Positions 8,501 through 60,113 are shown, counted from the first letter of the stretch. The stretch: DNA of 62,624 bases from a virus (IMGVR_UViG_3300023179_000109:1-62624), one strand, 5' to 3'. Program-made: numbers and translations. Notes: generated by a model not told the origin, from the sequence alone.

Positions 8501-9595
8501 TTAGGATTGAGGTCTTAAAACAGCCAATGCTTCGGGATATTCAACATCTAAAGCCTCTTCATTTTTTGGTTTGTAAGGAACATTTTTAAGAACGTATCTA
8601 ATCGCATTTAAACCAGATACTCTTTTATCTTCAGAATCAATAATAACCCAAGGATGATTTAGTGTTGATGTTTTATCAAAAAGTTTCTCTTTAAATTCTG
8701 TAAATCTATCCCACAAATCTTGCATTTTCTCATCATTAGGTGAGTATTTCCAATATTTTAATGGTGATTGTTGTCTAATATCAAATCTTCTTTTTTGAGT
8801 GTCTTTTTCAATTGAAAACCAAAGTTTAAATAAGTAATCACCTTCTTTAACTAAGTCTTGTTCAAAATCAGCAACATTTTCCATAAAGTCGTTATATTCT
8901 TCGGGTGAACCATATCCCATAACAGGCTCAATTAATCCTCGGTTATACCAACTCCTGTCAAAAAGATTTATCATGCCTGGTTTGATTTCTTTTTTATATC
9001 TTTCCCACCAGTTTTTTCTATCCTCAGGAGTTGGAATACCTAAAGCAACTACATTATAGTATCTTGGGTTTAAATTTTCTACAAATTTCTTAATTGTGGA
9101 ACCTTTTCCTGCTGAATCTCTACCTTCAAAAACAATTATAACTGTTTTGCCTGTTTTTGATAACCATTCCTGCATTCTTAAAAGTTCAACTTGTAAATCA
9201 AATAATTCTTTTCTGTAAACTTTTTTTGGAATTATTGACGGTTCTTCAAATTCGTAATCAGACATTTCAGGTTCATCGGAATCAGACTCGGACCTATTTT
9301 TTAATGACACAATAATCTTTGAAAGATAGTCCACCACATTTTTTCTTTTATCTCCTTTTTTTAATAATACTTTTTTTAACCCTCTCTCTAAAAGACCAAA
9401 ATCAATTATTTGAGACTTAGCCAAAAAACTAATATCCATCAATAAACTTTCAATTGGTTGAGTGTATAATTTAAGATATTTTAATACCTCTATAGAATTA
9501 CGTAAGTCAAGATTCATTTGTAACGGAGAATCATCTTCTTTAACTAACCCCATTACACTACGGATTCTATCAATATTTTCAAAAAGATTTGACAT
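8501..9595 (-). CDS. ppk2: polyphosphate kinase 2 with a ~120-aa N-terminal extension
   Basis: FEGRDSAGKGSTIK Walker A, FDRSWYNR and WKYSPND motifs. Confidence 0.92.
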   Translation of the reverse strand: MSNLFENIDRIRSVMGLVKEDDSPLQMNLDLRNSIEVLKYLKLYTQPIESLLMDISFLAKSQIIDFGLLERGLKKVLLKKGDKRKNVVDYLSKIIVSLKNRSESDSDEPEMSDYEFEEPSIIPKKVYRKELFDLQVELLRMQEWLSKTGKTVIIVFEGRDSAGKGSTIKKFVENLNPRYYNVVALGIPTPEDRKNWWERYKKEIKPGMINLFDRSWYNRGLIEPVMGYGSPEEYNDFMENVADFEQDLVKEGDYLFKLWFSIEKDTQKRRFDIRQQSPLKYWKYSPNDEKMQDLWDRFTEFKEKLFDKTSTLNHPWVIIDSEDKRVSGLNAIRYVLKNVPYKPKNEEALDVEYPEALAVLRPQS

Positions 9596-19583: not shown

Positions 19584-19660
19584 ATTTTTACTTTTTATAA
19601 AATATAGGTAAAATAAAAGTTTGAGTCAAAAAAAAATCCATCATTTCTGAAGGATTTTAA

Positions 19661-19834
19661 TGCTGTTAGAGCAGGAGTCGAACCTACAAACGGAGATTCA
19701 ATAAGCGACATAAGTGCTTGCAAGCAGGTGGTCTACCCCAGTATCGCTTATCTATTTCTTTATCCGTACCCTCGGGACTGGAGGGTGTGTTTGCCAAGGT
19801 CATAACAGAGACAACCTAATTTCACCATCTAACA
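19661..19834 (-). ncRNA. oversized tRNA-like RNA (nominal anticodon GUC)
   Basis: acceptor TGTTAGA/TCTAACA, T-arm GTAGG-TTCGACT-CCTGC, stem CCCTC-CAGTCCC-GAGGG, inserted D-loop hairpin, ~80-nt variable arm. Confidence 0.7.
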
Positions 19835-19838
19835 ATTT

Positions 19839-19924
19839 TGGCGGAGAGGAAGGGAATCGAACCCCCAAAGCCTTTCAGCCCAGCTGATTTCAAGTCAGTG
19901 TCCTCGTCCATTCGGACCCTCTCC
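19839..19924 (-). tRNA. tRNA-Ser(TGA)
   Basis: cloverleaf, loop CTTGAAA, long variable arm, encoded CCA. Confidence 0.93.
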
Positions 19925-20641
19925 TTATTCGTACAATCTAATATAATCTTTCCCGTATTTATTTATAACATAAATTAGATATTGTTTCATATCTTTTTCG
20001 TATAATACATTCAGATTAAACTTAAACTGTTTAATTTTTTCTTTATTCTCGTCATCCATTTTCTCAAAACTTCTTCTCCCTTTTATTTCATAATAGGTTT
20101 CCGATATTAAAAAATCAGGATGATATTTTCTTTTTTTACCCTTATATTCATATTCAAACCCAAAATTATTCCTCTCAAATTTTATGTTGTGTTCAATATT
20201 ATAAATCACCCACGCTAATTCCCAACTACTATCACACCAATATCCTTTATATCTACCCTTTTTACCTTTACCACTACCTTTTCTTAATCCACCAGACAAT
20301 GGATTTTTTTTCATTGTCTCCGATATTTTTTCTTTCCTTTCAGCTTCTTTAATAGGGGTTGAAGCTTTTCCTGTTGCTATACCTTTTAAAGAATCGCTAA
20401 TTTTTTTTCTATGTTCTTCTGTATAAACACCTATTTTACCTTTATTCCATGGTATAATAGGTAATCCTCTTTGATTTTCAGGAAGTGACCAATATGGGGT
20501 TCCTTTAAATTTTCCTTTCTTTTTTTCAGAGTCTTTATTTTTTTTTCCTTCACAAGAATTAGGTGATTTTTCACAACAACCATTTCCTGTTTTAAAAAAA
20601 TATTTTGCCTCTTTTCCACAACCATATGAACAAATTATCAT
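19925..20641 (-). CDS. putative free-standing homing endonuclease (NUMOD3-like repeats plus PD-(D/E)XK domain)
   Basis: PWNKGK..YTEEHRKKISDSLKG; DSSWE...YHPDFLI...EIKG. Confidence 0.75.
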   Translation of the reverse strand: MIICSYGCGKEAKYFFKTGNGCCEKSPNSCEGKKNKDSEKKKGKFKGTPYWSLPENQRGLPIIPWNKGKIGVYTEEHRKKISDSLKGIATGKASTPIKEAERKEKISETMKKNPLSGGLRKGSGKGKKGRYKGYWCDSSWELAWVIYNIEHNIKFERNNFGFEYEYKGKKRKYHPDFLISETYYEIKGRRSFEKMDDENKEKIKQFKFNLNVLYEKDMKQYLIYVINKYGKDYIRLYE

Positions 20642-24583: not shown

Positions 24584-25747
24584 TTAGTTGCTCAAGGGAG
24601 CTTTAATTTTTGGGTGTGATTCATATCCGATTAATTCAAAACAATCAGGTCTATAACTTTTAAGTTTTTCATCAAGAGTTTTTTCACCTAAATGTTCTTT
24701 AACTGCCTCATGCATGTACCAATTACGTTCAGTTATTTTAACTGTTGGTAGTTCATATGGAGTTCTTGAAATTTGTTCTTTGGCTTGTTCAATATGATTT
24801 TTATATAAATGAACATCACCAAGGTTTCCAATCAATTGGTCAGGAACCATGTTAACTTCTTTAGCGATAATCTCAAGTAATAAACCGTAAGATGCAATGT
24901 TGAATGGTAAACCTAAGAATGTATCTACGCTTCTTTGATTCCACATTAAAGAGATAGCTCGTTTAGGGATATTCCCTTCATCAAATTTATTATGTAACCA
25001 TTTTCTATCCTCTATTGACATATCACTATTTTCAATACTATTCCCAATATTGAAACTACCATGTATATCATAAAACTTATCTGGGTTTGGATGTTGTTTT
25101 GCTCGTTCATCCAAATTCAACTCTCTTGTATAAATTTGGAATCCATAATGACAAGGTGGTAAAACCATTTGGTCTAACTCACCTACATTCCAAGCATTTA
25201 CCATCAATCTTCTACTATCAGGATTGGTTTTGAGTTCGTTGATTAAGTTTTGAATTTGGTCTACTCCGTTCATTAGTTTCTCAACATTTCCCAAATTGTA
25301 TGTAATTGTGGGTTCTGTTAGTTTACCCCAGCTTCTCCATTGCTTACCATAGATTGGCCCTAAATCACCCCACTTACTACAAAACTCTTTATTATTTTTA
25401 ATTCGGTCAATGAATTGATTCATATCCAAATGAGGTTCCCATGGTTGAACATTATTTGAATAATTCTTATAAGCATCACCATCCCAAATATGACAATCGT
25501 AATCCAATAAAAACTTGATATTGGTTTCTCCACGAAGGAACCACAATAGTTCAACTACCATAGTTTTCCATGCCATCTTCTTTGTTGTGAGTAATGGAAA
25601 TCCATCAGACATATTATGTCTGAACTGAATACCAAACAATGATTTGGTTCCTGTTCCTGTTCTATCAGATTTGTTAAAGCTTTGGTCTTCACTTATTAGT
25701 AATGAAAGTAAAGCTTGATACCATTCGTCTAAATAATTGCTATTCAT
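24584..25747 (-). CDS. thyA: thymidylate synthase
   Basis: DRTGTGT, FPLLTTKK, LPPCH, QRSVDTFLGLPFNIASY; contains insertions. Confidence 0.97.
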   Translation of the reverse strand: MNSNYLDEWYQALLSLLISEDQSFNKSDRTGTGTKSLFGIQFRHNMSDGFPLLTTKKMAWKTMVVELLWFLRGETNIKFLLDYDCHIWDGDAYKNYSNNVQPWEPHLDMNQFIDRIKNNKEFCSKWGDLGPIYGKQWRSWGKLTEPTITYNLGNVEKLMNGVDQIQNLINELKTNPDSRRLMVNAWNVGELDQMVLPPCHYGFQIYTRELNLDERAKQHPNPDKFYDIHGSFNIGNSIENSDMSIEDRKWLHNKFDEGNIPKRAISLMWNQRSVDTFLGLPFNIASYGLLLEIIAKEVNMVPDQLIGNLGDVHLYKNHIEQAKEQISRTPYELPTVKITERNWYMHEAVKEHLGEKTLDEKLKSYRPDCFELIGYESHPKIKAPLSN

Positions 25748-37228: not shown

Positions 37229-37876
37229 TTATTCAATACACAAAATATCATTAATAATTTCTTTGCTGGAGAGAGAAGTCCAACATCTTGGGTGTTCATA
37301 TGACCAAAAAGTTTTCCAATAACCAAACCATAACACTCCTTCTTTTCTTGGGTCTACAGTCCTCCAGTCATTAGATGATTTAGGGTATCTACCAATTTTA
37401 TATATTTTATAAAAATCAATATCTTTTGTTAGATATTTCGTATTAAAACTATTGTTTAACTCATCAAACTTTGATTCAATGACAATTTTACAATTATGCA
37501 TTGTTTGATATTTTTTAATTTGTTCAATCCAAATTTCAGCTTCTTTGAAGTTTGAAGTATCTAAAACAAATTTCAATAATTTACCATTATCGTTATATCT
37601 GTGAGAAAATATTTTTTGTAATCCTGAATCTTCATTAAATCGGTAAACGTTAATTTCAAAATCAAAATAAAATTCTATTGGTAGATTAAAATATGAGTTA
37701 TTTCCTTTTCCAGGTTTAGTTGTTATATGATATGATTCCACAAATACAGGAGAATCATTATTTTTTTTAAATTCGTTAATTTCAACTAAATAATACGTTT
37801 CAGGACCATCAACATAAACTTTAATACCTGATTGAAAATTTAGTCTAATTTTTTCATTATTTATTTGTGTAAACAT
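37229..37876 (-). CDS. hypothetical protein
   Basis: ORF overlapping the carbamoyltransferase stop. Confidence 0.55.
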   Translation of the reverse strand: MFTQINNEKIRLNFQSGIKVYVDGPETYYLVEINEFKKNNDSPVFVESYHITTKPGKGNNSYFNLPIEFYFDFEINVYRFNEDSGLQKIFSHRYNDNGKLLKFVLDTSNFKEAEIWIEQIKKYQTMHNCKIVIESKFDELNNSFNTKYLTKDIDFYKIYKIGRYPKSSNDWRTVDPRKEGVLWFGYWKTFWSYEHPRCWTSLSSKEIINDILCIE

Positions 37877-39449
37877 AATTTTCAATAACAAGTTTATCTA
37901 TAATACCATTTTGTAGACTAATAAATGCATCTTCTGGGTTATCAATAATTGGCTGATTGTGTGAGTTAAATGATGTATTTAAAAGTACTGGTATTTTTGA
38001 AAGTTTATGATACTCGTTTAGTATTTCCCAAAATTTTGGGCAATTGTCTTTTTTAACTAATTGAGGTCTGGCGGTTTTATCAGATTTTTGAATCACAGCA
38101 GGAATTTTTTCAATCCATTCTTCTTTGGTTGGATAACAAATTGTCATAAATTCTGCACTATATTTTGATTTATTTCCTTCAAATATATCATCAAAATATT
38201 CTTCCATCACTATTGGTGCAAATGGCATTAATTCATATCTCTTTAGTCTTGTATTCAGTATTTCATGAGTACCAATATCCGTTGGTCTAACTAAAATACT
38301 TCTAGCACCAAGTGCTCTTGGTCCATATTCAAAACCATCTTGAAACCACCCAATAATTTTACCTTCATTTAAATCTTTGGCAATTGCGTTTGATTCATAA
38401 AATTCTTTATTAAAATCAAAATTTTTTGATATATTAAAAATTTGATAATCAGAATATTTTAATCCAAAATATAGGTTTTTTAATTTTTTTGGTTTTGTCC
38501 ATTCACCTAATTGTACTGCTTTGTAAATGCAGGCACCTAATGAAAGCCCCTCATCACCCATTGCAGGATAAATATAAATCTCATCAACCCAATCAAGTTC
38601 ATTTATCTTTTGATTTAATTTAACATTGGCAAACAATCCACCTGAAAAACATAATTTTTTGTATTCAGGAAACCTTATATGTAAATCGTTTAGAAATGAC
38701 AAAAACAAATCTTCTGTTATTTTTTGTAAATTGTATGAAAAAATTTCTCTTTTTGTTTTTGTGTCAAAAAAACCTTTTTGGTACATTGAATCAATAACAA
38801 GTTGGGTTTTTCCCGCGGTATTTGAGGGAAAAAATTTTAAGTTTTCATAATCAATGCATGAATTAAGAAACTTATATATTTTTTCATCATAGTAACCATT
38901 TGGCGCCATTCCCATTAGTTTCCCTTCATCCTTACACATTTTCCACGTGCCTTCAAACTTAGAATTGTGTCCCATTATACCATTTGTGCTAAATGCCCAC
39001 AAATGTGCTAAACTTCCTGTGTTACACATATCGTAACTGTATAATAAGTTCATTTTACCATCTTCACACATGTAGACCTTCATTACTGACTTATCTCCAC
39101 CACCATCATAAGAAATAGTTAGAACTTTTCCATCCATTCCACTTGTGAAATATGAACCATAACAATGAGCGTCGTGATGACTTACTCTTTCGTAATTGTT
39201 ATTTGTTATTTGGTTTGCGAATCTATCAGTCACAGGCTCAACAAATACCCTATGGTCGGAATCTAATATTTTTAAATCACAGTAGCTTTCAACAACTTTT
39301 GATGATAGTTCTGCAACCGCATCAAAATTATCTCCTGCTTTAATACGAGTAATTCTTTCTTCTTCAATACAACAAACAATTTCACCATCAATTACAAGTG
39401 ATGTTGCTGGACTGTGAGACCCACCAAAAAAACCATAAATTGAACTCAT
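37857..39449 (-). CDS. NodU/CmcH-family carbamoyltransferase
   Basis: EEERITRIK, HHDAH, DGGGD, EGKLMG, GPRALGARS, PFAP, LNTSFN. Confidence 0.92.
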   Translation of the reverse strand: MSSIYGFFGGSHSPATSLVIDGEIVCCIEEERITRIKAGDNFDAVAELSSKVVESYCDLKILDSDHRVFVEPVTDRFANQITNNNYERVSHHDAHCYGSYFTSGMDGKVLTISYDGGGDKSVMKVYMCEDGKMNLLYSYDMCNTGSLAHLWAFSTNGIMGHNSKFEGTWKMCKDEGKLMGMAPNGYYDEKIYKFLNSCIDYENLKFFPSNTAGKTQLVIDSMYQKGFFDTKTKREIFSYNLQKITEDLFLSFLNDLHIRFPEYKKLCFSGGLFANVKLNQKINELDWVDEIYIYPAMGDEGLSLGACIYKAVQLGEWTKPKKLKNLYFGLKYSDYQIFNISKNFDFNKEFYESNAIAKDLNEGKIIGWFQDGFEYGPRALGARSILVRPTDIGTHEILNTRLKRYELMPFAPIVMEEYFDDIFEGNKSKYSAEFMTICYPTKEEWIEKIPAVIQKSDKTARPQLVKKDNCPKFWEILNEYHKLSKIPVLLNTSFNSHNQPIIDNPEDAFISLQNGIIDKLVIENYVYTNK

Positions 39450-41119
39450 GTTGTCTTTGTAATTAAAACATTATTTAAAACTAAGAAATCCAATCCGTTT
39501 TCTATAAAACTTTTTATTGCGTCTTTAGGTGTTTCAACCATTGGTTCTCTTGGTCCATTGAAACTTGTATTGAGTAATACTGGTACACCAGTCTTTTCGT
39601 GGAATTTTTTAATTAACGAATAAAATCTTGGATTGTTTTTTTCGGTAACTGATTGATGTCTGGCAGAATAATCTATATGAGTTACTGCAGGGATTTTATT
39701 TCTCCAATCTTCTTTTACTGTTGTAGTTACTAACATATATGGTGAGTAAACATCAGATTCAAAAACTTCTGATTGATGTTCAAACAAAACAGCTGGAGCA
39801 AATGGTCTGTACCACTCTCTTTTCTTAATATCTGAATTAATATGTCCTGTCATCCAAGACTTAATTGGTGATGCAAGTATTGAACGGTTACCTAATGCTC
39901 TCGGACCAATTTCAGAACCTCCTTGGAACCAACCAATTACACGGTTTTGAGTTAACCAAAAAGAAACATCTTCAACTAATTTTTCAAAGTCATCATATTT
40001 TTCAAAAACTAAATGAGGAAATTCATTTAATGTTGAATTTATTTCCTTGTCAGAATAGGGTTTTCCTATATATGGACTTAAAGGTTCAACAACATCAATG
40101 TCAATAAGTTGTTGGTATGCGTACCACGCACATCCTAATGGGATTCCACTATCATCTGCTGGAGGAATGAAAAAACAATCTTCAAATAATCCTGAATTTA
40201 ATATTTTTTCATTTGAGTTACAGTTCAAGAATGAGCCGCCAGCAACACATATATTTTTAGAGTTAGTCAGTGTTTTTGCTTTCTCTGCAAGCATTAAAGA
40301 AACTCTCTCTTGTTCTCTTTGATAAATTCCCGCAACACAAGCTCTTGAGAAAAAATCTGAATTGTAATTAACTCTTGGATAGATTCTTTTGTTAGGGATA
40401 AAAATATCACCGTCTTTTTCAACAATAAAATATGGTGCTTCGTTTACAATATCTTGGTCAGCATATGATGCAAGACCCATAAGTTTACCCGCTGGCCACG
40501 TGTTATGGTTTGGTTCAAAGATTAATTGTAACGACCCTTCAGAATATACCGTACCAACGGAAACACCGTCTTCAGTTTCCAAAGGAACTGGCCACTTAAT
40601 CCATTTTTTGTAAACTTCAGTATATTCATTTTTTTTAATGTGATATATTGAAATTCCCTCACTCCAATCTTGACGAGTTTCTATTTTTTCATTATAGACA
40701 TCTTTATACCAAAGGGGTAGTTTATTAAGATGACTCAAAATACTACCAGACGCATCAGCAACAACAACCGCAGCTTCGTCAAAACCTGAGCTGAAGAAAG
40801 ATGAATATGCGTGAGCTAAATGGTGAGGTAAAAATTTGGTTTTATTTGTTAAATCAACTTTGAAATGTTTTCTCATTTGTTCGTCTACATCATCAACCAT
40901 TTCGGTTGTACTGTATACAAACAAATCAATATCTTTATAAGTTATTCCCAAATAATCTAAACAATAATTAATTGAATCATAAGGTATGGTTCCGCCCTGA
41001 TATGCGCCGTCGTGTTTTATTCTTGAAAGTCTTTCTTGGGTAATCCCCACGGCAACTTTTCCGTCTTCAATTATAACTGCACCCTTATCATGGCCAACAG
41101 AAAATCCTAATGTCCTCAT
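39446..41119 (-). CDS. NodU/CmcH-family carbamoyltransferase
   Basis: GHD, ERLSRIKH, HHLAHA, GKLMGLA, GPRALGNRS, RPFAP, LNTSFN. Confidence 0.93.
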   Translation of the reverse strand: MRTLGFSVGHDKGAVIIEDGKVAVGITQERLSRIKHDGAYQGGTIPYDSINYCLDYLGITYKDIDLFVYSTTEMVDDVDEQMRKHFKVDLTNKTKFLPHHLAHAYSSFFSSGFDEAAVVVADASGSILSHLNKLPLWYKDVYNEKIETRQDWSEGISIYHIKKNEYTEVYKKWIKWPVPLETEDGVSVGTVYSEGSLQLIFEPNHNTWPAGKLMGLASYADQDIVNEAPYFIVEKDGDIFIPNKRIYPRVNYNSDFFSRACVAGIYQREQERVSLMLAEKAKTLTNSKNICVAGGSFLNCNSNEKILNSGLFEDCFFIPPADDSGIPLGCAWYAYQQLIDIDVVEPLSPYIGKPYSDKEINSTLNEFPHLVFEKYDDFEKLVEDVSFWLTQNRVIGWFQGGSEIGPRALGNRSILASPIKSWMTGHINSDIKKREWYRPFAPAVLFEHQSEVFESDVYSPYMLVTTTVKEDWRNKIPAVTHIDYSARHQSVTEKNNPRFYSLIKKFHEKTGVPVLLNTSFNGPREPMVETPKDAIKSFIENGLDFLVLNNVLITKTT

Positions 41120-43837: not shown

Positions 43838-43909
43838 GTCTCCTTAGCTCAGCGATAGAGCGATTCGCTGTTAACGAATAAGTCCCTGGTTTGAATCCAG
43901 GAGGGGACG
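43838..43909 (+). tRNA. tRNA-Asn(GTT)
   Basis: ATTCG-CTGTTAA-CGAAT; atypical D and T loops. Confidence 0.88.
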
Positions 43910-43914
43910 CAAAA

Positions 43915-43987
43915 GCGGGAGTAGCTCATTCGGTAGAGCGATAGCCTTCCAAGCTATAGGTGGCCAGTTCGAGCCTGGTCTCCCGCT
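43915..43987 (+). tRNA. tRNA-Gly(TCC)
   Basis: ATAGC-CTTCCAA-GCTAT. Confidence 0.95.
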
Positions 43988-44042
43988 CAAAGTGGATAAA
44001 ACGTGTAGTAACCACAGGAAAGGTACCTTTCACTACACTCCA

Positions 44043-55836: not shown

Positions 55837-58800
55837 TTATCTACCGAAGATATATCTGATACCGAATTGAGCTGTCCACACATCAAATACTGATGAGTTT
55901 CTGCTGTAAGTATCTTTTAACAAAACTGTAGAACCATCAGCTAATTTTTGAGTAGCTAATTTGTAAACAGGTTCGTTGTTAACTACTGATGAATAAGTTA
56001 AAATAGTTGGGTTTGTTGCTCTTTGAGAAACACCCCACTTATCGTTAACCATATTACCAAAGTTAAGAATATCAAATCTTAATTGAATTGTATTTCTTTG
56101 ACCTTTAACGTTAACAAAGAAATCTTGTACAACTGATAAATCAAATCTGTGTAACCAAGGTAAGAACATAGCGTTTCTTTCAGCATATTGACCTTTACGA
56201 GATGAAAGATATTCATCTTGATTGATATAAGCTTCAAATGCCGCTTGTTGTTCTGCCTCTGTATATGTTCTTGTACCAACTACTAATGGTGCGAATTTGA
56301 TATCAGAACCTTTGTTAGGAACGAAGATTAATTCGTTGTTGTTTACTCTATCACCGTTTAAGTCACCCGCTACGATATAAGAGAAACCACCATTTCTTTG
56401 ACCTACGTAACCTAAAGTTACTGAAGTTGCTGCACCATATCCTTTTTTACCGTATTCAATTCTATATCCTAATAAACCAACTGCTCTATCAGGAACTACG
56501 AAATCTGAATTTGATAATAATGGGTTATTGTTACCGTTAACACTTCTGATAGACTGCCATGAACCTGATGCAATTGAACCACCACTCATGTAATCTTTAG
56601 CGTTAGACTTAGTGTAAGCAATACTACCAAAGAAACCTTTAGAATATGGTTTCTCTAATTTAACACTTAAAGCGTTGTAGTATGTGTCATCATTGTCAGT
56701 TAAAACAGCACCCATAGATACGTTGTTATTAACTCTAACACCAGCATCAGTTCTTGCATAAAGTGCTCTTGTATCAACTCCGCTGAAATTACCAACTGGA
56801 GCTTTTAAGTTTGCGTTGTAGTAATGAACTGCGTTAATGTTTTTGTTATAAAGGTATTCTACTGAACCAATTAATCCTAAAGGTAATTTTTGGTCAACTG
56901 CGATATTAGTTTTCCAAACCTGAGGGAATTTGTAATTAGGGTCAGTGAATGCTAAATCAAATGTAGATGGTAAAGTTGGAGTTGAAGGAATAAAGTATTT
57001 CTCAGGGTTAGCTGTGAAACCGTATCCTGCAGCTGCAGCACCACTTACATCAATAAATCCTGTTAACACACCGTTGTTACCAACTTGGTTAGAAACAAAC
57101 ACGTATGGAGGACGACCTGTGAATACACCTGTACCACCTCTAACTTGTGTTTTGTTCTCACCTTTAACATTGTAGTTAAAACCTAATCTTGGTTCTAATA
57201 ACTTTTGTGTTTTAGGTAATACACCTGTGTTGAATTTTTCACCGTTAGCAAAAGTCATTGCAGTTACTGCAGGGTTTTCTAAAGCGGTATTTTGAAAATC
57301 AATAATCGCGATTCTTAAACCACCAGTAACTTTCAATTTGTCATTTACTTGGTATTCGTCTTGACCATAAATGTCTAAACGAGTTGATTTTAAAGTTTGC
57401 ATTGGGTCAACAGCTCCAGGTAATGCAGAATATCTGTATTGGAATCTGTATGGTGCCAATGTTGATGGTTTTCCACCGTTAGCTAAAGATTGATTAGCTG
57501 CAGTGTAGAAATCAGTCAAACTGTTAAAAATGTAGACACCGTTAGATGCAGGATAGAATAAGTTATTAGATTGATATTTTTCAAAATTTACACCACCTGT
57601 TAAAGTGTGCTTGTTAGCATACTTTGTTAAATTGTTTGTAATGTGGAAAGTATTGTAATCTAATTTATTTCCTGGAGTGAACGGGTCAAATCCTGTTGAA
57701 ATATAGTTAATTCTTGCAGATGTTCCATCAGCGATATCTATCGTTGGGAATACACCTGACATATAAGCTCTATCCTCAATTTGTTTGTCATAACCAACAA
57801 TTAAGTTGTTATGTAATGTGTTTGATAATTTACTGTTCAATTCTAAAACTGCTGAACGTGTATTATCCATAATAATATAACCACTGTTTTTAAAACTCAT
57901 AGAGTTAAATTGAGTAGTTCTATTACCAGCACCTGCTGATGATGAGTTAGAAATATTAATTTCAGCTTCAGAGTCGTGGTGAATATAACGAGCGGTTAAT
58001 TTATGTTTGTCGTTAATATTCCAATCCATACGAACTAAGAATTTTTTAGATGCATTTGTGTTAGAATAACCTTCCCAAGGACCTGTAACATATCCAAACT
58101 TATCTTTCATAAAGTCAGATAGTGTTTTCATGTCATTGTATTGAACTCTTGTAGGTTGAGCCCCACCTAATGGAGAACCTGCAGATGTCCAAGTTGTACC
58201 TGGTTCAGTTTTTTCTAAAAACTCATAGTTTCCAAAGATGAATAATTTGTCCTTGATAATTGGTGCACCTAAACGAAAACCTCTTACAACTTCATCAAAT
58301 TTTGATGCTGTCACAGGAACTCCGTAAGCAGAATTACCAACATAACGAGAACTATTATCTCTTTGTGTTTGATAGTATGAACCTTCAATTTTGTTTGTAC
58401 CTGAACGTGTTACGGCATTAATTCCTGCCCCAACAAATCCACTTTGACGAATGTCAAAAGGTGCTATGTTTACTTGAAGTTGGTCAATTGCATCTAAAGA
58501 AATTGCAGTTGAGCCTGTTCTACCACCAGCTTGAGCTGAAGAACCCAATCCAAAACCATTATTGAATTGAGAACCATCAATTGTGAAGTTGTTTAAACGA
58601 GAGTCTTGAGCTCCAAATGAACTACCATCACCCAATGGGTTGTACTTAGTAATTGCATTAATAGTTCTAGCCCCTGTAATTGGAATAGTTTGTAATTCTC
58701 TTCTTCCGAATTGTTGACTAGCCCCTGTTTTGTCTTTTGAAAACACATTATTTTTTGTTCCAACGACAACAACTTCTTTTAATGATTTTGAATCTTCCAC

Positions 58801-59121
58801 CAAAACAACATCAATATTAGTTGTTAAACCTAATGATGTGTTGATATCAGAAACTTCTTTAGTTTTGTAACCTACGTAAGTTACTTTAATCACGTAAGGC
58901 CCACCAACTCTTGCCGCAGGGATTACATATCCACCTTGAGAGTTTGTTGAAGAACCGTACTTTGTACCTGTTGGTTGGTGAACAGCGTTAACTGTTGCTC
59001 CGACCAATTTTTCACCTTTTTCATTCTTTACAACACCTGACAGGGTAGAAGTTGTAATCTGCCCGAAAGATGCGATTGTCACGAATAAGGATAAAAGTGA
59101 CATCATGATTGTTTTTTTCAT
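55837..59121 (-). CDS. TonB-dependent receptor (Oar-like, N-terminal carboxypeptidase-regulatory-like domain)
   Basis: signal peptide, LSGVVK...LVGATV, NFTIDG, GAGINAVTRSGTN plug, terminal QFGIRYIF. Confidence 0.9.
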   Translation of the reverse strand: MKKTIMMSLLSLFVTIASFGQITTSTLSGVVKNEKGEKLVGATVNAVHQPTGTKYGSSTNSQGGYVIPAARVGGPYVIKVTYVGYKTKEVSDINTSLGLTTNIDVVLVEDSKSLKEVVVVGTKNNVFSKDKTGASQQFGRRELQTIPITGARTINAITKYNPLGDGSSFGAQDSRLNNFTIDGSQFNNGFGLGSSAQAGGRTGSTAISLDAIDQLQVNIAPFDIRQSGFVGAGINAVTRSGTNKIEGSYYQTQRDNSSRYVGNSAYGVPVTASKFDEVVRGFRLGAPIIKDKLFIFGNYEFLEKTEPGTTWTSAGSPLGGAQPTRVQYNDMKTLSDFMKDKFGYVTGPWEGYSNTNASKKFLVRMDWNINDKHKLTARYIHHDSEAEINISNSSSAGAGNRTTQFNSMSFKNSGYIIMDNTRSAVLELNSKLSNTLHNNLIVGYDKQIEDRAYMSGVFPTIDIADGTSARINYISTGFDPFTPGNKLDYNTFHITNNLTKYANKHTLTGGVNFEKYQSNNLFYPASNGVYIFNSLTDFYTAANQSLANGGKPSTLAPYRFQYRYSALPGAVDPMQTLKSTRLDIYGQDEYQVNDKLKVTGGLRIAIIDFQNTALENPAVTAMTFANGEKFNTGVLPKTQKLLEPRLGFNYNVKGENKTQVRGGTGVFTGRPPYVFVSNQVGNNGVLTGFIDVSGAAAAGYGFTANPEKYFIPSTPTLPSTFDLAFTDPNYKFPQVWKTNIAVDQKLPLGLIGSVEYLYNKNINAVHYYNANLKAPVGNFSGVDTRALYARTDAGVRVNNNVSMGAVLTDNDDTYYNALSVKLEKPYSKGFFGSIAYTKSNAKDYMSGGSIASGSWQSIRSVNGNNNPLLSNSDFVVPDRAVGLLGYRIEYGKKGYGAATSVTLGYVGQRNGGFSYIVAGDLNGDRVNNNELIFVPNKGSDIKFAPLVVGTRTYTEAEQQAAFEAYINQDEYLSSRKGQYAERNAMFLPWLHRFDLSVVQDFFVNVKGQRNTIQLRFDILNFGNMVNDKWGVSQRATNPTILTYSSVVNNEPVYKLATQKLADGSTVLLKDTYSRNSSVFDVWTAQFGIRYIFGR

Positions 59122-59716: not shown

Positions 59717-60113
59717 TGGTGGAGATGACGGGAGTCGAACCCGTGTCTTACAAAATTAACATAAACAGACTACACGTTTAGTACAACATCGTTTCTCAAT
59801 GTTCCGAAATATTAGATTTGATATATGTGGGAAACCAATCTACAAACAACCTGGTCTCAGAGTTATTTTAAAGGAGCTCTGACCTGTGACCCCTATAGCG
59901 GACTTCTGTTCCTAGGTTATATGTCCTAACCGACCCGAGTAGTTGTTGCTTATATTAAGCTACAACTGGAGCTTCTTCAGCGATTAAGCCTAAAGTAGCC
60001 ATTTTAGCAAAAGTATTGCCGTTTGAATTTTTTCACCGTGGATTTAAGTCATAGATGAATTCTGACTACGTGCCTGCGTACCCTAACTATTGCAATCAAT
60101 ACCAAGCATCCCC
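59717..60113 (-). ncRNA. ssrA: tmRNA
   Basis: 5' GGGGATG, 3' GGTTCGACTCCCGTCATCTCCACCA with G3-U70 Ala identity, internal tag ORF 60020-59955. Confidence 0.92.

Follow-up and report, generated by a model that had tools for sequence, protein, structure and literature searches.

Oversized, stable RNAs have been known in phage tRNA clusters since the T4 species 1 and species 2 RNAs, and to our knowledge none has an assigned function. The two T4 RNAs (rnaC and rnaD; 139 and 119 nt) are encoded at the end of the phage tRNA cluster, on the strand of the tRNAs; the T arm and 3' end of rnaC resemble those of a tRNA. GOLLD and ROOL are phage and prophage RNAs that also occur near tRNA islands (Kretsch et al., PMC12286853). 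In that article, covariation from one palindrome to another in OLE and GOLLD was used to infer intermolecular pairing, which cryo-EM confirmed.

Class II tRNAs are recognised by a 3-bp D stem, a D loop of the Leu/Ser/Tyr type and a long paired variable arm. The discriminator of tRNA-Leu is A73. For tRNA-Asp, the nucleotides G73, G34, U35, C36 and C38 are five strong, evolutionarily conserved identity determinants and G2-C71 is a minor one (Giegé and Eriani, PMC9976931). The same article describes G1-C72 as strictly conserved in bacterial tRNA-Asp and as helping to place the 3' end in Escherichia coli AspRS.

Here we analyse a giant tRNA-like RNA encoded in a 62,624-nt stretch of viral DNA (IMGVR_UViG_3300023179_000109, hereafter the window). 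The window is a piece of a virus record estimated to be 23% complete and has a G+C content of 30-39%. The locus is a member of a large phage RNA family that is supported by covariation and has been overlooked by standard tRNA finders and Rfam 15.

A tRNA array with 22 genes occupies 43.6-49.4 kb of the window, which also encodes a tmRNA (ARAGORN, Rfam). ARAGORN counts 22 tRNAs in the window and Rfam counts 23. Asp is in neither set, in agreement with the first-pass annotation, which had noted the absence of a canonical tRNA-Asp. At the place in the array where the Asp gene is gone, tRNA-Asn is followed after 4 nt by tRNA-Gly; the window's own array has lost tRNA-Asp. The 174-nt feature had been reported without a strand and lies on the minus strand, reading from 19834 to 19661 (Table 1). 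The tRNA-Ser(UGA) gene upstream of it is caught by Rfam and missed by ARAGORN, which does catch the copies in relatives. On the other side, a terminator scan made no call at the hairpin and T-run, beyond which lie a promoter-like site and then a 341-aa open reading frame (ORF).

Table 1. Parts of the giant tRNA-like RNA gene and its immediate surroundings, in window coordinates
Feature	Coordinates	Strand	Basis
Giant tRNA-like RNA gene, RNA positions 1-174 (window coordinate = 19835 minus RNA position)	19661..19834	-	Minimum-energy cloverleaf; covariance model R1, 201.2 bits; RNA-library contig over 19835-19662
tRNA-Ser(UGA), 7 nt upstream of the giant RNA	19842..19924	-	Rfam RF00005, 33 bits; copies in relatives are tRNA-Ser(tga) by ARAGORN
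Weak A/U-rich hairpin, then a run of nine T; possible end of the transcription unit	19627..19658	-	Sequence reading
Acceptor stem, 5' strand, TGTTAGA	19828..19834	-	7/7 pairs with double-sided change, 100% of cells paired (81-sequence alignment)
Acceptor stem, 3' strand, TCTAACA	19664..19670	-	MAFFT and model-fitted alignments
Discriminator G73 and encoded C74; CCA unencoded	19662..19663	-	G 81/81, C 81/81; N73-C74 only in all 22 window tRNAs too
Class II (Leu-like) D arm: 3-bp stem GTG/CAC, A14, D-loop GG at 19794-19795	19787..19825	-	Alignments; comparison with the window's tRNA-Leu; best non-family matches of R1 are tRNA-Leu and tRNA-Ser
Hairpin of 7 bp inserted in the D loop ahead of the D-loop GG, RNA positions 18-38	19797..19817	-	7/7 pairs change on both sides, many gaps
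Anticodon-like arm: 5-6 bp stem, 7-nt loop CAGUCCC (loop 19774-19780; GUC 19776-19778)	19769..19785	-	5/5 stem pairs covary; loop statistics
Branched variable arm, 78 nt	19690..19767	-	Fold, both alignments, mutual information
Internal loop of the variable arm: AAUA (5' side), GAA (3' side)	19753..19756 (AAUA); 19697-19699 (GAA)	-	Invariant in the 11-sequence alignment, nearly so in the larger family alignment
Tip hairpin 1, GGGGUAGACCACC, sequence nearly invariant	19727..19739	-	Alignments; outer pair switches GC 53 / UA 17
Tip 2, perfect palindrome, UGCUUGCAAGCA in the window; candidate self-pairing (dimerisation) element	19715..19726	-	Palindrome of at least 8 nt in 79/81 sequences; positions 113-116 covary
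T arm, 5 bp, GTAGG-TTCGACT-CCTGC; T loop GGUUCGAnUCC	19671..19687	-	Alignments

The minimum-energy fold of the minus strand reproduces exactly the cloverleaf drawn in the first-pass annotation. The acceptor stem and T arm are intact, the D stem is the Leu-like GTG/CAC, a 7-bp hairpin interrupts the D loop, and the variable arm, put at about 80 nt, is branched and includes the stems ACGGA/TCCGT and ATAAGCGATA/TGTCGCTTAT. The 7-nt loop has A33, as had been seen, followed by G34 U35 C36, C37 and C38. U8 and G9 sit between the acceptor and D stems, and the RNA ends in G73, C74 and A. Going outwards, the variable arm starts with a base of 4 bp, followed by a 4-nt bulge and a helix of 3 bp; beyond the internal loop (AAUA/GAA) comes a stem of 11 bp, which leads to a three-way junction that carries two tips. 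The internal loop may resemble a loop-E / sarcin-ricin motif. Mutual information across 81 sequences gives A76, not A72, as the partner of U141 (AU 50, CG 15 and UA 12 of 81), so the bulge comprises positions 72-75. The folding energy is unexceptional (z = -1.18; 24 of 200 shuffles fold as well). Since energy alone does no better than chance, the support for the structure comes from homologues.

The body of the RNA is that of a class II tRNA, with a 3-bp D stem, the corresponding D loop and a long paired variable arm. Its D arm (UG-GYG-AAAU..GG.A.A-CRC) nearly matches the one in the window's tRNA-Leu, and the variable arm begins one nucleotide past the anticodon stem, as in class II tRNAs. A covariance model of the family (R1) gives its best non-family scores to tRNA-Leu (36.9 bits) and tRNA-Ser (about 30 bits). 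The elbow nucleotides of a tRNA (U8, A14, the D-loop GG and GGUUCGA) are invariant in the family. In contrast to class II tRNAs, the variable arm is about four times longer and branched, and G73 and the GUC loop fit neither Leu nor Ser/Tyr anticodons. Like canonical tRNA-Asp(GUC), the RNA has an acceptor stem of 7 bp, a T arm of 5 bp with GGUUCGAnUCC and an anticodon stem of 5 bp closed by a 7-nt loop; the two also have G34 U35 C36, C38, G73 and G2-C71 in common. It differs from tRNA-Asp in its class II D arm, U1-A72 in place of G1-C72, a pyrimidine at position 37, a free position 33, the 80-nt branched variable arm and the optional D-loop hairpin, and it goes unseen by RF00005 and ARAGORN.

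Of the database checks suggested in the first-pass annotation, ARAGORN and Rfam were run, and neither recognised the RNA. ARAGORN and the RF00005 tRNA model made no call at 19661-19834, and a search of all Rfam 15 families (E<=10) gave no match over it. Homologues were found by synteny. The downstream ORF was used to fetch 32 related IMG/VR loci, many of which hold full-length copies at 72-98% identity by plain blastn; R1 finds full-length relatives in 21 of the 32. Its matches include a distant clade in a complete 321-kb phage genome (G001), where a 160-nt version directly follows tRNA-Ser(UGA). Scanning IMG/VR with a degenerate pattern across the junction of variable arm and T arm returned at least 119 stretches. 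Among the matches listed, R1 confirmed 94 of 100 pattern loci and then 15 of 16 further ones (109/116). Altogether there are more than 130 full-length homologous loci, a lower bound.

The same pattern applied to 185,579 species genomes gave 102 stretches with only two true R1 matches, both on tiny contigs of Bacteroidota MAGs; a Bacteroidota host is a weak guess. Among 50,697 GenBank phage records, blastn with the window region matched tRNA-Ser only, and two diverged family members used as queries matched nothing at E<=1. Homology to the T4 RNAs was considered and rejected, as R1 with filters off scored 12.9 bits over a portion of rnaC and had no match in rnaD.

The alignments provide the test of compensatory change that had been called for, and every helix is backed by it. 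A MAFFT alignment of 11 distinct copies has 97.3% of cells paired and 21 pairs with double-sided change, compared to 8.2 in shuffled alignments and 0-3 in slid controls. In the alignment of 81 distinct sequences, 98.2% of cells are paired, 39 of 52 pairs show double-sided change, and the covariation score is 0.479 (0.161 for shuffles, at most 0.092 for slid controls). This larger alignment leans towards the covariance model, to which it was fitted; the independent MAFFT result agrees. The earlier proposal of an unknown tRNA-derived non-coding RNA is thus borne out and extended to a large phage family with covariation.

Family members are 149-177 nt long. Constant features are U1-A72, G2-C71, U3-A70, G73, C74, U8, G9, A14, the D-loop GG and the T loop (U1 79/80, G2 79/80, U3 77/80). 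The remainder of the acceptor stem and the D, anticodon-like and T stems vary with compensation. The D-loop hairpin is optional: L125, L142, L117 and L089, among others, do without it, and in L132 it grows to about 40 nt. The variable arm occurs in every member, its distal covarying stem being 10-11 bp long, and it holds the most sequence-invariant stretches of the RNA. The giant RNA is missing from three close relatives (L005, L006 and L018), in which tRNA-Ser abuts the downstream ORF. It is therefore dispensable, an accessory gene.

Wherever ARAGORN finds a tRNA neighbour (52 contexts), the giant RNA is on that neighbour's strand. Spacers of 4 nt are common, as in Ser-4-giant-4-Ile (L107, L073), and the orders Ser-giant-Gly and Ser-giant-Leu also occur. 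The leader has A at -2 in 77/82 contexts, U at -1 in 71/82 and a pyrimidine at -1 in 81/82. U(-1) is the leader preferred by RNase P. Like all 22 tRNAs of the window, the giant RNA encodes N73-C74 and leaves out CCA, and the mature RNA is probably 19834-19662 with an added CA. No CCA enzyme was found in G000-G004, a set that includes the complete genome G001.

Transcript data come from four RNA runs. In run X18, a lake metatranscriptome, a 207-nt contig with a depth of 33 covers exactly 19835-19662, all 173 nt, with no internal joint. We read this contig, one from one run, as an abundant unspliced RNA with a non-templated CA at its 3' end. The contig closes on itself via three extra letters (...G73-C74-C-A-U-U(-1)-U1...). 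This head-to-tail junction could reflect circular or concatenated molecules, template switching by reverse transcriptase or tandem genes; against tandem genes, none of 100 loci has two copies of the giant RNA. In runs X15, X16 and X17 the contigs extend into the flanks (a tRNA-Ser variant, the downstream ORF), and they yield no transcript ends or expression; stretches that they leave uncovered count neither way. The locus almost certainly encodes a real, functional RNA that is processed like a tRNA.

GUC, C38 and G73, which the first-pass annotation had picked out as AspRS identity elements, hold across the family and belong to the set named in PMC9976931. G34, U35 and C36 are each present in 80/80 sequences, C38 in 78/80, G73 in 81/81 and G2-C71 in 79/80. 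The whole Asp set is kept except G1-C72: the 1-72 pair is U-A in 79/80, and G1-C72 is present in the canonical tRNA-Asp of the phage. Only 55 of 80 members have G10, which is an Asp element in E. coli.

Two other loop positions are not kept. Of 80 distinct loops, 71 have U at position 37, 8 have C and 1 has A, making a purine the exception (1/80); at position 33 the counts are 37 for C, 35 for U and 8 for A. As a control, 311 distinct ARAGORN tRNAs of the same loci have U33 in 311/311 and a purine at 37 in 310/311, with the caveat that a preference of ARAGORN for U33 may bias the U33 figure. In its commonest form, CUGUCUC, the giant loop departs from the CUGUCAC of canonical phage tRNA-Asp at position 37 only. 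Canonical tRNA-Asp(GUC) accompanies the giant RNA in G004, in the complete genome G001 and in 13 of 18 giant-bearing loci that hold at least 10 tRNAs. The hint that the giant RNA stands in for a missing tRNA-Asp is weakened accordingly, since relatives encode both. U33 and purine-37 are lost, the variable arm is 80 nt long and a normal tRNA-Asp is retained, all of which points away from the ribosome as the place where this RNA acts; very probably it does not decode.

In 79 of 81 distinct sequences the second tip of the variable arm reads as a perfect palindrome of 8-12 nt without gaps, and 17 different palindromes are in use. Palindromes in the anticodon arm, the T arm and the first tip span only 0-6 nt. 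The inner tetranucleotide switches among UGCA, GGCC, AGCU, UCGA, GCGC and CAUG, and mutual information shows positions 113-116 to covary (UA 48, GC 10, AU 5, CG 2). Adjacent bases of one chain cannot pair, so this switching supplies the same argument that was made for intermolecular pairing in OLE and GOLLD. It suggests, at the level of sequence, that two copies may pair through tip 2. Computed homodimer energies (RNAcofold) have medians of -16.1 kcal/mol for the family and -10.5 kcal/mol for 22 ordinary tRNAs, with no clear separation. We put the chance that the RNA dimerises at about even. The self-complementary, covarying loop is a feature shared with GOLLD, ROOL and OLE, where such loops brought intermolecular pairing and homo-oligomers to light (PMC12286853). 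Those RNAs are 3-5 times larger and are not tRNA-shaped, the giant RNA has no Rfam match, and its oligomer is putative.

These features can be arranged into a mechanism. RNase P and 3' trimming would free the RNA from the array transcript, and a host enzyme would add CCA. The giant arm and the altered loop would keep the RNA off the ribosome, and the palindromic tip may join two copies as a symmetric dimer. The RNA would then engage a protein that recognises tRNA-Asp at its anticodon loop as well as at its acceptor end. Such a reader is suggested by the joint freezing of GUC, C38 and G73. AspRS is the known protein of this kind, and no class IIb synthetase was found in the phages themselves (G000-G004); the homodimeric AspRS of the host is the most economical candidate. 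AspRS is a homodimer that binds two tRNAs, and a symmetric dimer formed through the palindromic tip would fit it. The RNA might be charged as a non-ribosomal Asp carrier, or it might be a poorly charged trap of AspRS, because U1-A72 replaces the bacterial G1-C72 and may misplace the 3' end.

Our main reading is thus a processed, CCA-tailed, non-decoding tRNA-Asp mimic, possibly dimeric, that engages AspRS or another tRNA-Asp-specific protein. The probability of roughly 0.4 that we assign is that of its weakest step, the choice of AspRS, which is a tentative partner. The most specific form, a regulator of host AspRS in which two mimics paired tip to tip fill both tRNA sites and either trap the enzyme or are charged as a dedicated non-ribosomal aspartyl carrier, is speculative and on present evidence unlikely.

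Several observations speak against the main reading. The U1-A72 pair deviates from the G1-C72 of bacterial tRNA-Asp, G10 is far from universal in the family, and some close relatives do without the RNA. Class II synthetases approach the tRNA from the variable-arm side, where an 80-nt arm could clash with AspRS. As to phage-encoded partners, besides the class IIb synthetase, RtcB was not found in G000-G004, nor GatB in G000 and G001. The only RNA ligase matches in the G000-G004 set are weak Rnl2-like ones in G004 and G002. Nor did clustering of the 632 ORFs taken from 83 contexts reveal a conserved protein neighbour; at most 21 contexts share a cluster. ORF clusters that overlap the start of the RNA are probably spurious ORFs across tRNA genes.

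U1-A72 might also act here as the determinant for the GatCAB amidotransferase (PMC9976931). This idea was down-weighted: U or A is the first nucleotide of other phage tRNAs here too, tRNA-Asn of the phage carries G1-C72, and Bacteroides thetaiotaomicron gave no GatB match.

The partner might instead be a host enzyme that attacks or modifies the anticodon loop of tRNA-Asp, for example a defence anticodon nuclease, with the giant RNA acting as a decoy or inhibitor whose loop is bound and not productively used. A synthetase or nuclease decoy had been named in the first-pass annotation and is still a candidate function, and phages are well known to carry tRNAs that escape cleavage or stand in for cleaved host tRNAs. 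Here a pyrimidine at 37 and a variable 33 would block cleavage while the large arm would exclude the RNA from translation, which suits a loop in which GUC and C38 are frozen and positions 33 and 37 altered. The coexistence of a normal tRNA-Asp also fits, as does dispensability in close relatives, a trait of many accessory counter-defence genes. Such a decoy leaves the acceptor end unexplained, however, because anticodon nucleases need not read it, and both G73 and U1-G2-U3/A70-C71-A72 are invariant. No tRNA-Asp-specific defence nuclease was identified here, and the neighbourhoods hold no conserved defence or anti-defence gene (largest ORF cluster, 21 of 83 contexts). We consider a decoy of this kind unlikely.

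The invariant stretches of the variable arm and its palindrome would be accounted for if the cloverleaf were a handle for the arm, recruiting RNase P and CCA maturation and lending stability, as in the T4 species 1 and 2 RNAs. The arm, with its loop-E-like loop, GGGGUAGACCACC hairpin and palindrome, would then bind a protein or build an RNA-only assembly. Homo-oligomers are known for phage RNAs near tRNA islands (PMC12286853), and the palindrome suggests oligomerisation. Yet an intact anticodon arm would be needless for this purpose, whereas GUC, C38 and G73 are kept across 80 distinct sequences while the stem beneath covaries; and the 83 contexts revealed no conserved protein neighbour. This explanation, too, we hold to be rather improbable.

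If the mimic reading is wrong about decoding, the RNA could be a genuine tRNA-Asp isoacceptor, hardened for example against host nucleases and used by the ribosome despite its size. The complete cloverleaf with all elbow nucleotides, the 7-nt GUC loop, the array context and the CCA-like end are those of a tRNA, and the window's array has no tRNA-Asp. Against this stand the rarity of purine-37 (1/80) and the loss of U33 (35/80) relative to neighbouring tRNAs (310/311 and 311/311), and the canonical tRNA-Asp that most large arrays retain. We also know of no decoding tRNA whose variable arm comes close to the 80-nt branched one, which is about four times longer. A decoding role is therefore quite unlikely.

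Non-canonical introns had been offered as a second way to explain the insertions, and removing both, from the D loop and the variable region, does leave a cloverleaf of tRNA size that would correspond to a 75-nt spliced tRNA-Asp; the weak Rnl2-like ligase matches in two relatives point the same way. The evidence fails to support introns. Both insertions are conserved as structure by covariation, Rfam (E<=10) finds no group I or other intron family, and the RNA-bounded contig of run X18, a single contig, is unspliced. Moreover, the spliced product would retain pyrimidine-37, and neither RtcB nor an RNA ligase turned up in the complete genome G001. Splicing is very improbable. A decayed, functionless pseudo-tRNA, the case that the first-pass annotation had named as refuting its proposal and that would agree with the missing ARAGORN and Rfam calls and the ordinary folding energy, is refuted by covariation: full-length homologues number more than 130, 98% of cells are paired and compensatory change is widespread.

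Our literature search surfaced no description of the family. PMC10690425 reports thousands of structured RNAs predicted from IMG/VR, tRNA-like ones included, and its supplementary tables, which lay outside the search, may list it. We know of no precedent among tRNA-like phage RNAs for an intact anticodon arm that bears identity elements and yet very probably does not decode, or for a giant branched variable arm with a palindromic tip.

The family is abundant in lake phages, with more than 130 loci at least, and shows that viral metagenomes hold tRNA-like RNAs to which tRNA finders and Rfam are blind. Among the oversized RNAs of phage tRNA clusters it is unusually easy to interpret, because the full Asp identity set is kept while two loop features needed for decoding are dropped. 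If confirmed, the non-decoding tRNA-Asp mimic would point to phage tRNA mimicry directed against, or working together with, a specific synthetase or tRNA-directed enzyme. It would show that a branched variable arm of 80 nt is compatible with the tRNA fold and that palindrome-mediated RNA self-assembly, as in GOLLD, ROOL and OLE, reaches down to tRNA-sized molecules. Should the dimeric regulator of AspRS prove true, it would be without precedent both as a natural tRNA with a variable arm of about 80 nt and as a dimeric tRNA mimic.

The tRNA-Ser(UGA) gene that lies 7 nt upstream of the giant tRNA-Asp-like RNA draws no ARAGORN call in the window. Under Rfam in E-value mode, the tRNA-Sec model outscores RF00005 at this site, at 36.8 bits, itself under that model's cut-off of 47; copies in the relatives are called tRNA-Ser(tga). 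The ORF directly upstream of the pair weakly matches PHROG 15427, PHROG 15137 and DUF7487. This putative endonuclease is reminiscent of the homing endonuclease segB, which sits inside the tRNA cluster of T4.

Features of the window.
Feature	Position (nt)	Strand	Remarks
Polyphosphate kinase 2 gene	8501-9595	-	
tRNA-Ser(UGA) gene	19842-19924	-	Rfam RF00005, only 33 bits
238-aa ORF	19925-20641	-	weak endonuclease matches
Thymidylate-synthase-like ORF	24584-25747		family match split into two stretches
Tandem pair of carbamoyltransferase genes (530 and 557 aa)	37857-41119	-	
tRNA array: Asn, then Gly(UCC) after 4 nt	43838-43988		
1094-aa ORF, CarboxypepD_reg and outer-membrane beta-barrel domains	55837-59121	-	TonB-dependent receptor-like
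Phage-encoded tmRNA	59717-60113	-	ARAGORN; Rfam 91.7 bits

Both tRNA-Asp and tRNA-Ala have been lost from the tRNA array of the window. A canonical tRNA-Asp sits between Asn and Gly in the related virus genome G004 and in the complete 321-kb phage genome G001, and the latter additionally carries tRNA-Ala after Thr. ARAGORN also reports a tRNA-Ser with the unusual anticodon ACU in six related arrays (L074, L111, L140, L149, L159 and L164). R1, the covariance model built for the giant-RNA family, matches a 108-nt stretch of a further related locus (L169:10073-10180, + strand; 36.6 bits); this exceeds normal tRNA length and may be another oversized tRNA-like gene. The tag of the window's tmRNA is short (AEEAPVVA*, ARAGORN).

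In the lake metatranscriptome run X18, the head and tail of a 207-nt contig over window 19662-19835 join up; the resulting period is 177 nt, and the letters at the junction are C-A-U. A circular RNA, a concatenated RNA, template switching and tandem genes are all possible sources of such closure. A borderline Rnl2-type RNA ligase domain occurs in ORFs, each roughly 365 aa long, from G004 (L285, 38674-39105) and from another related genome, G002 (L286, 152173-152601), both of which bear the giant RNA; this domain was not found in G001 or in the window.

The TonB-dependent receptor-like ORF is unusual cargo for a phage. Its domain architecture is typical of Bacteroidota. Because of this architecture, and because the giant RNA is present on two tiny contigs of Bacteroidota MAGs (L196 and L276), there is a weak hint that the phage host belongs to the Bacteroidota.
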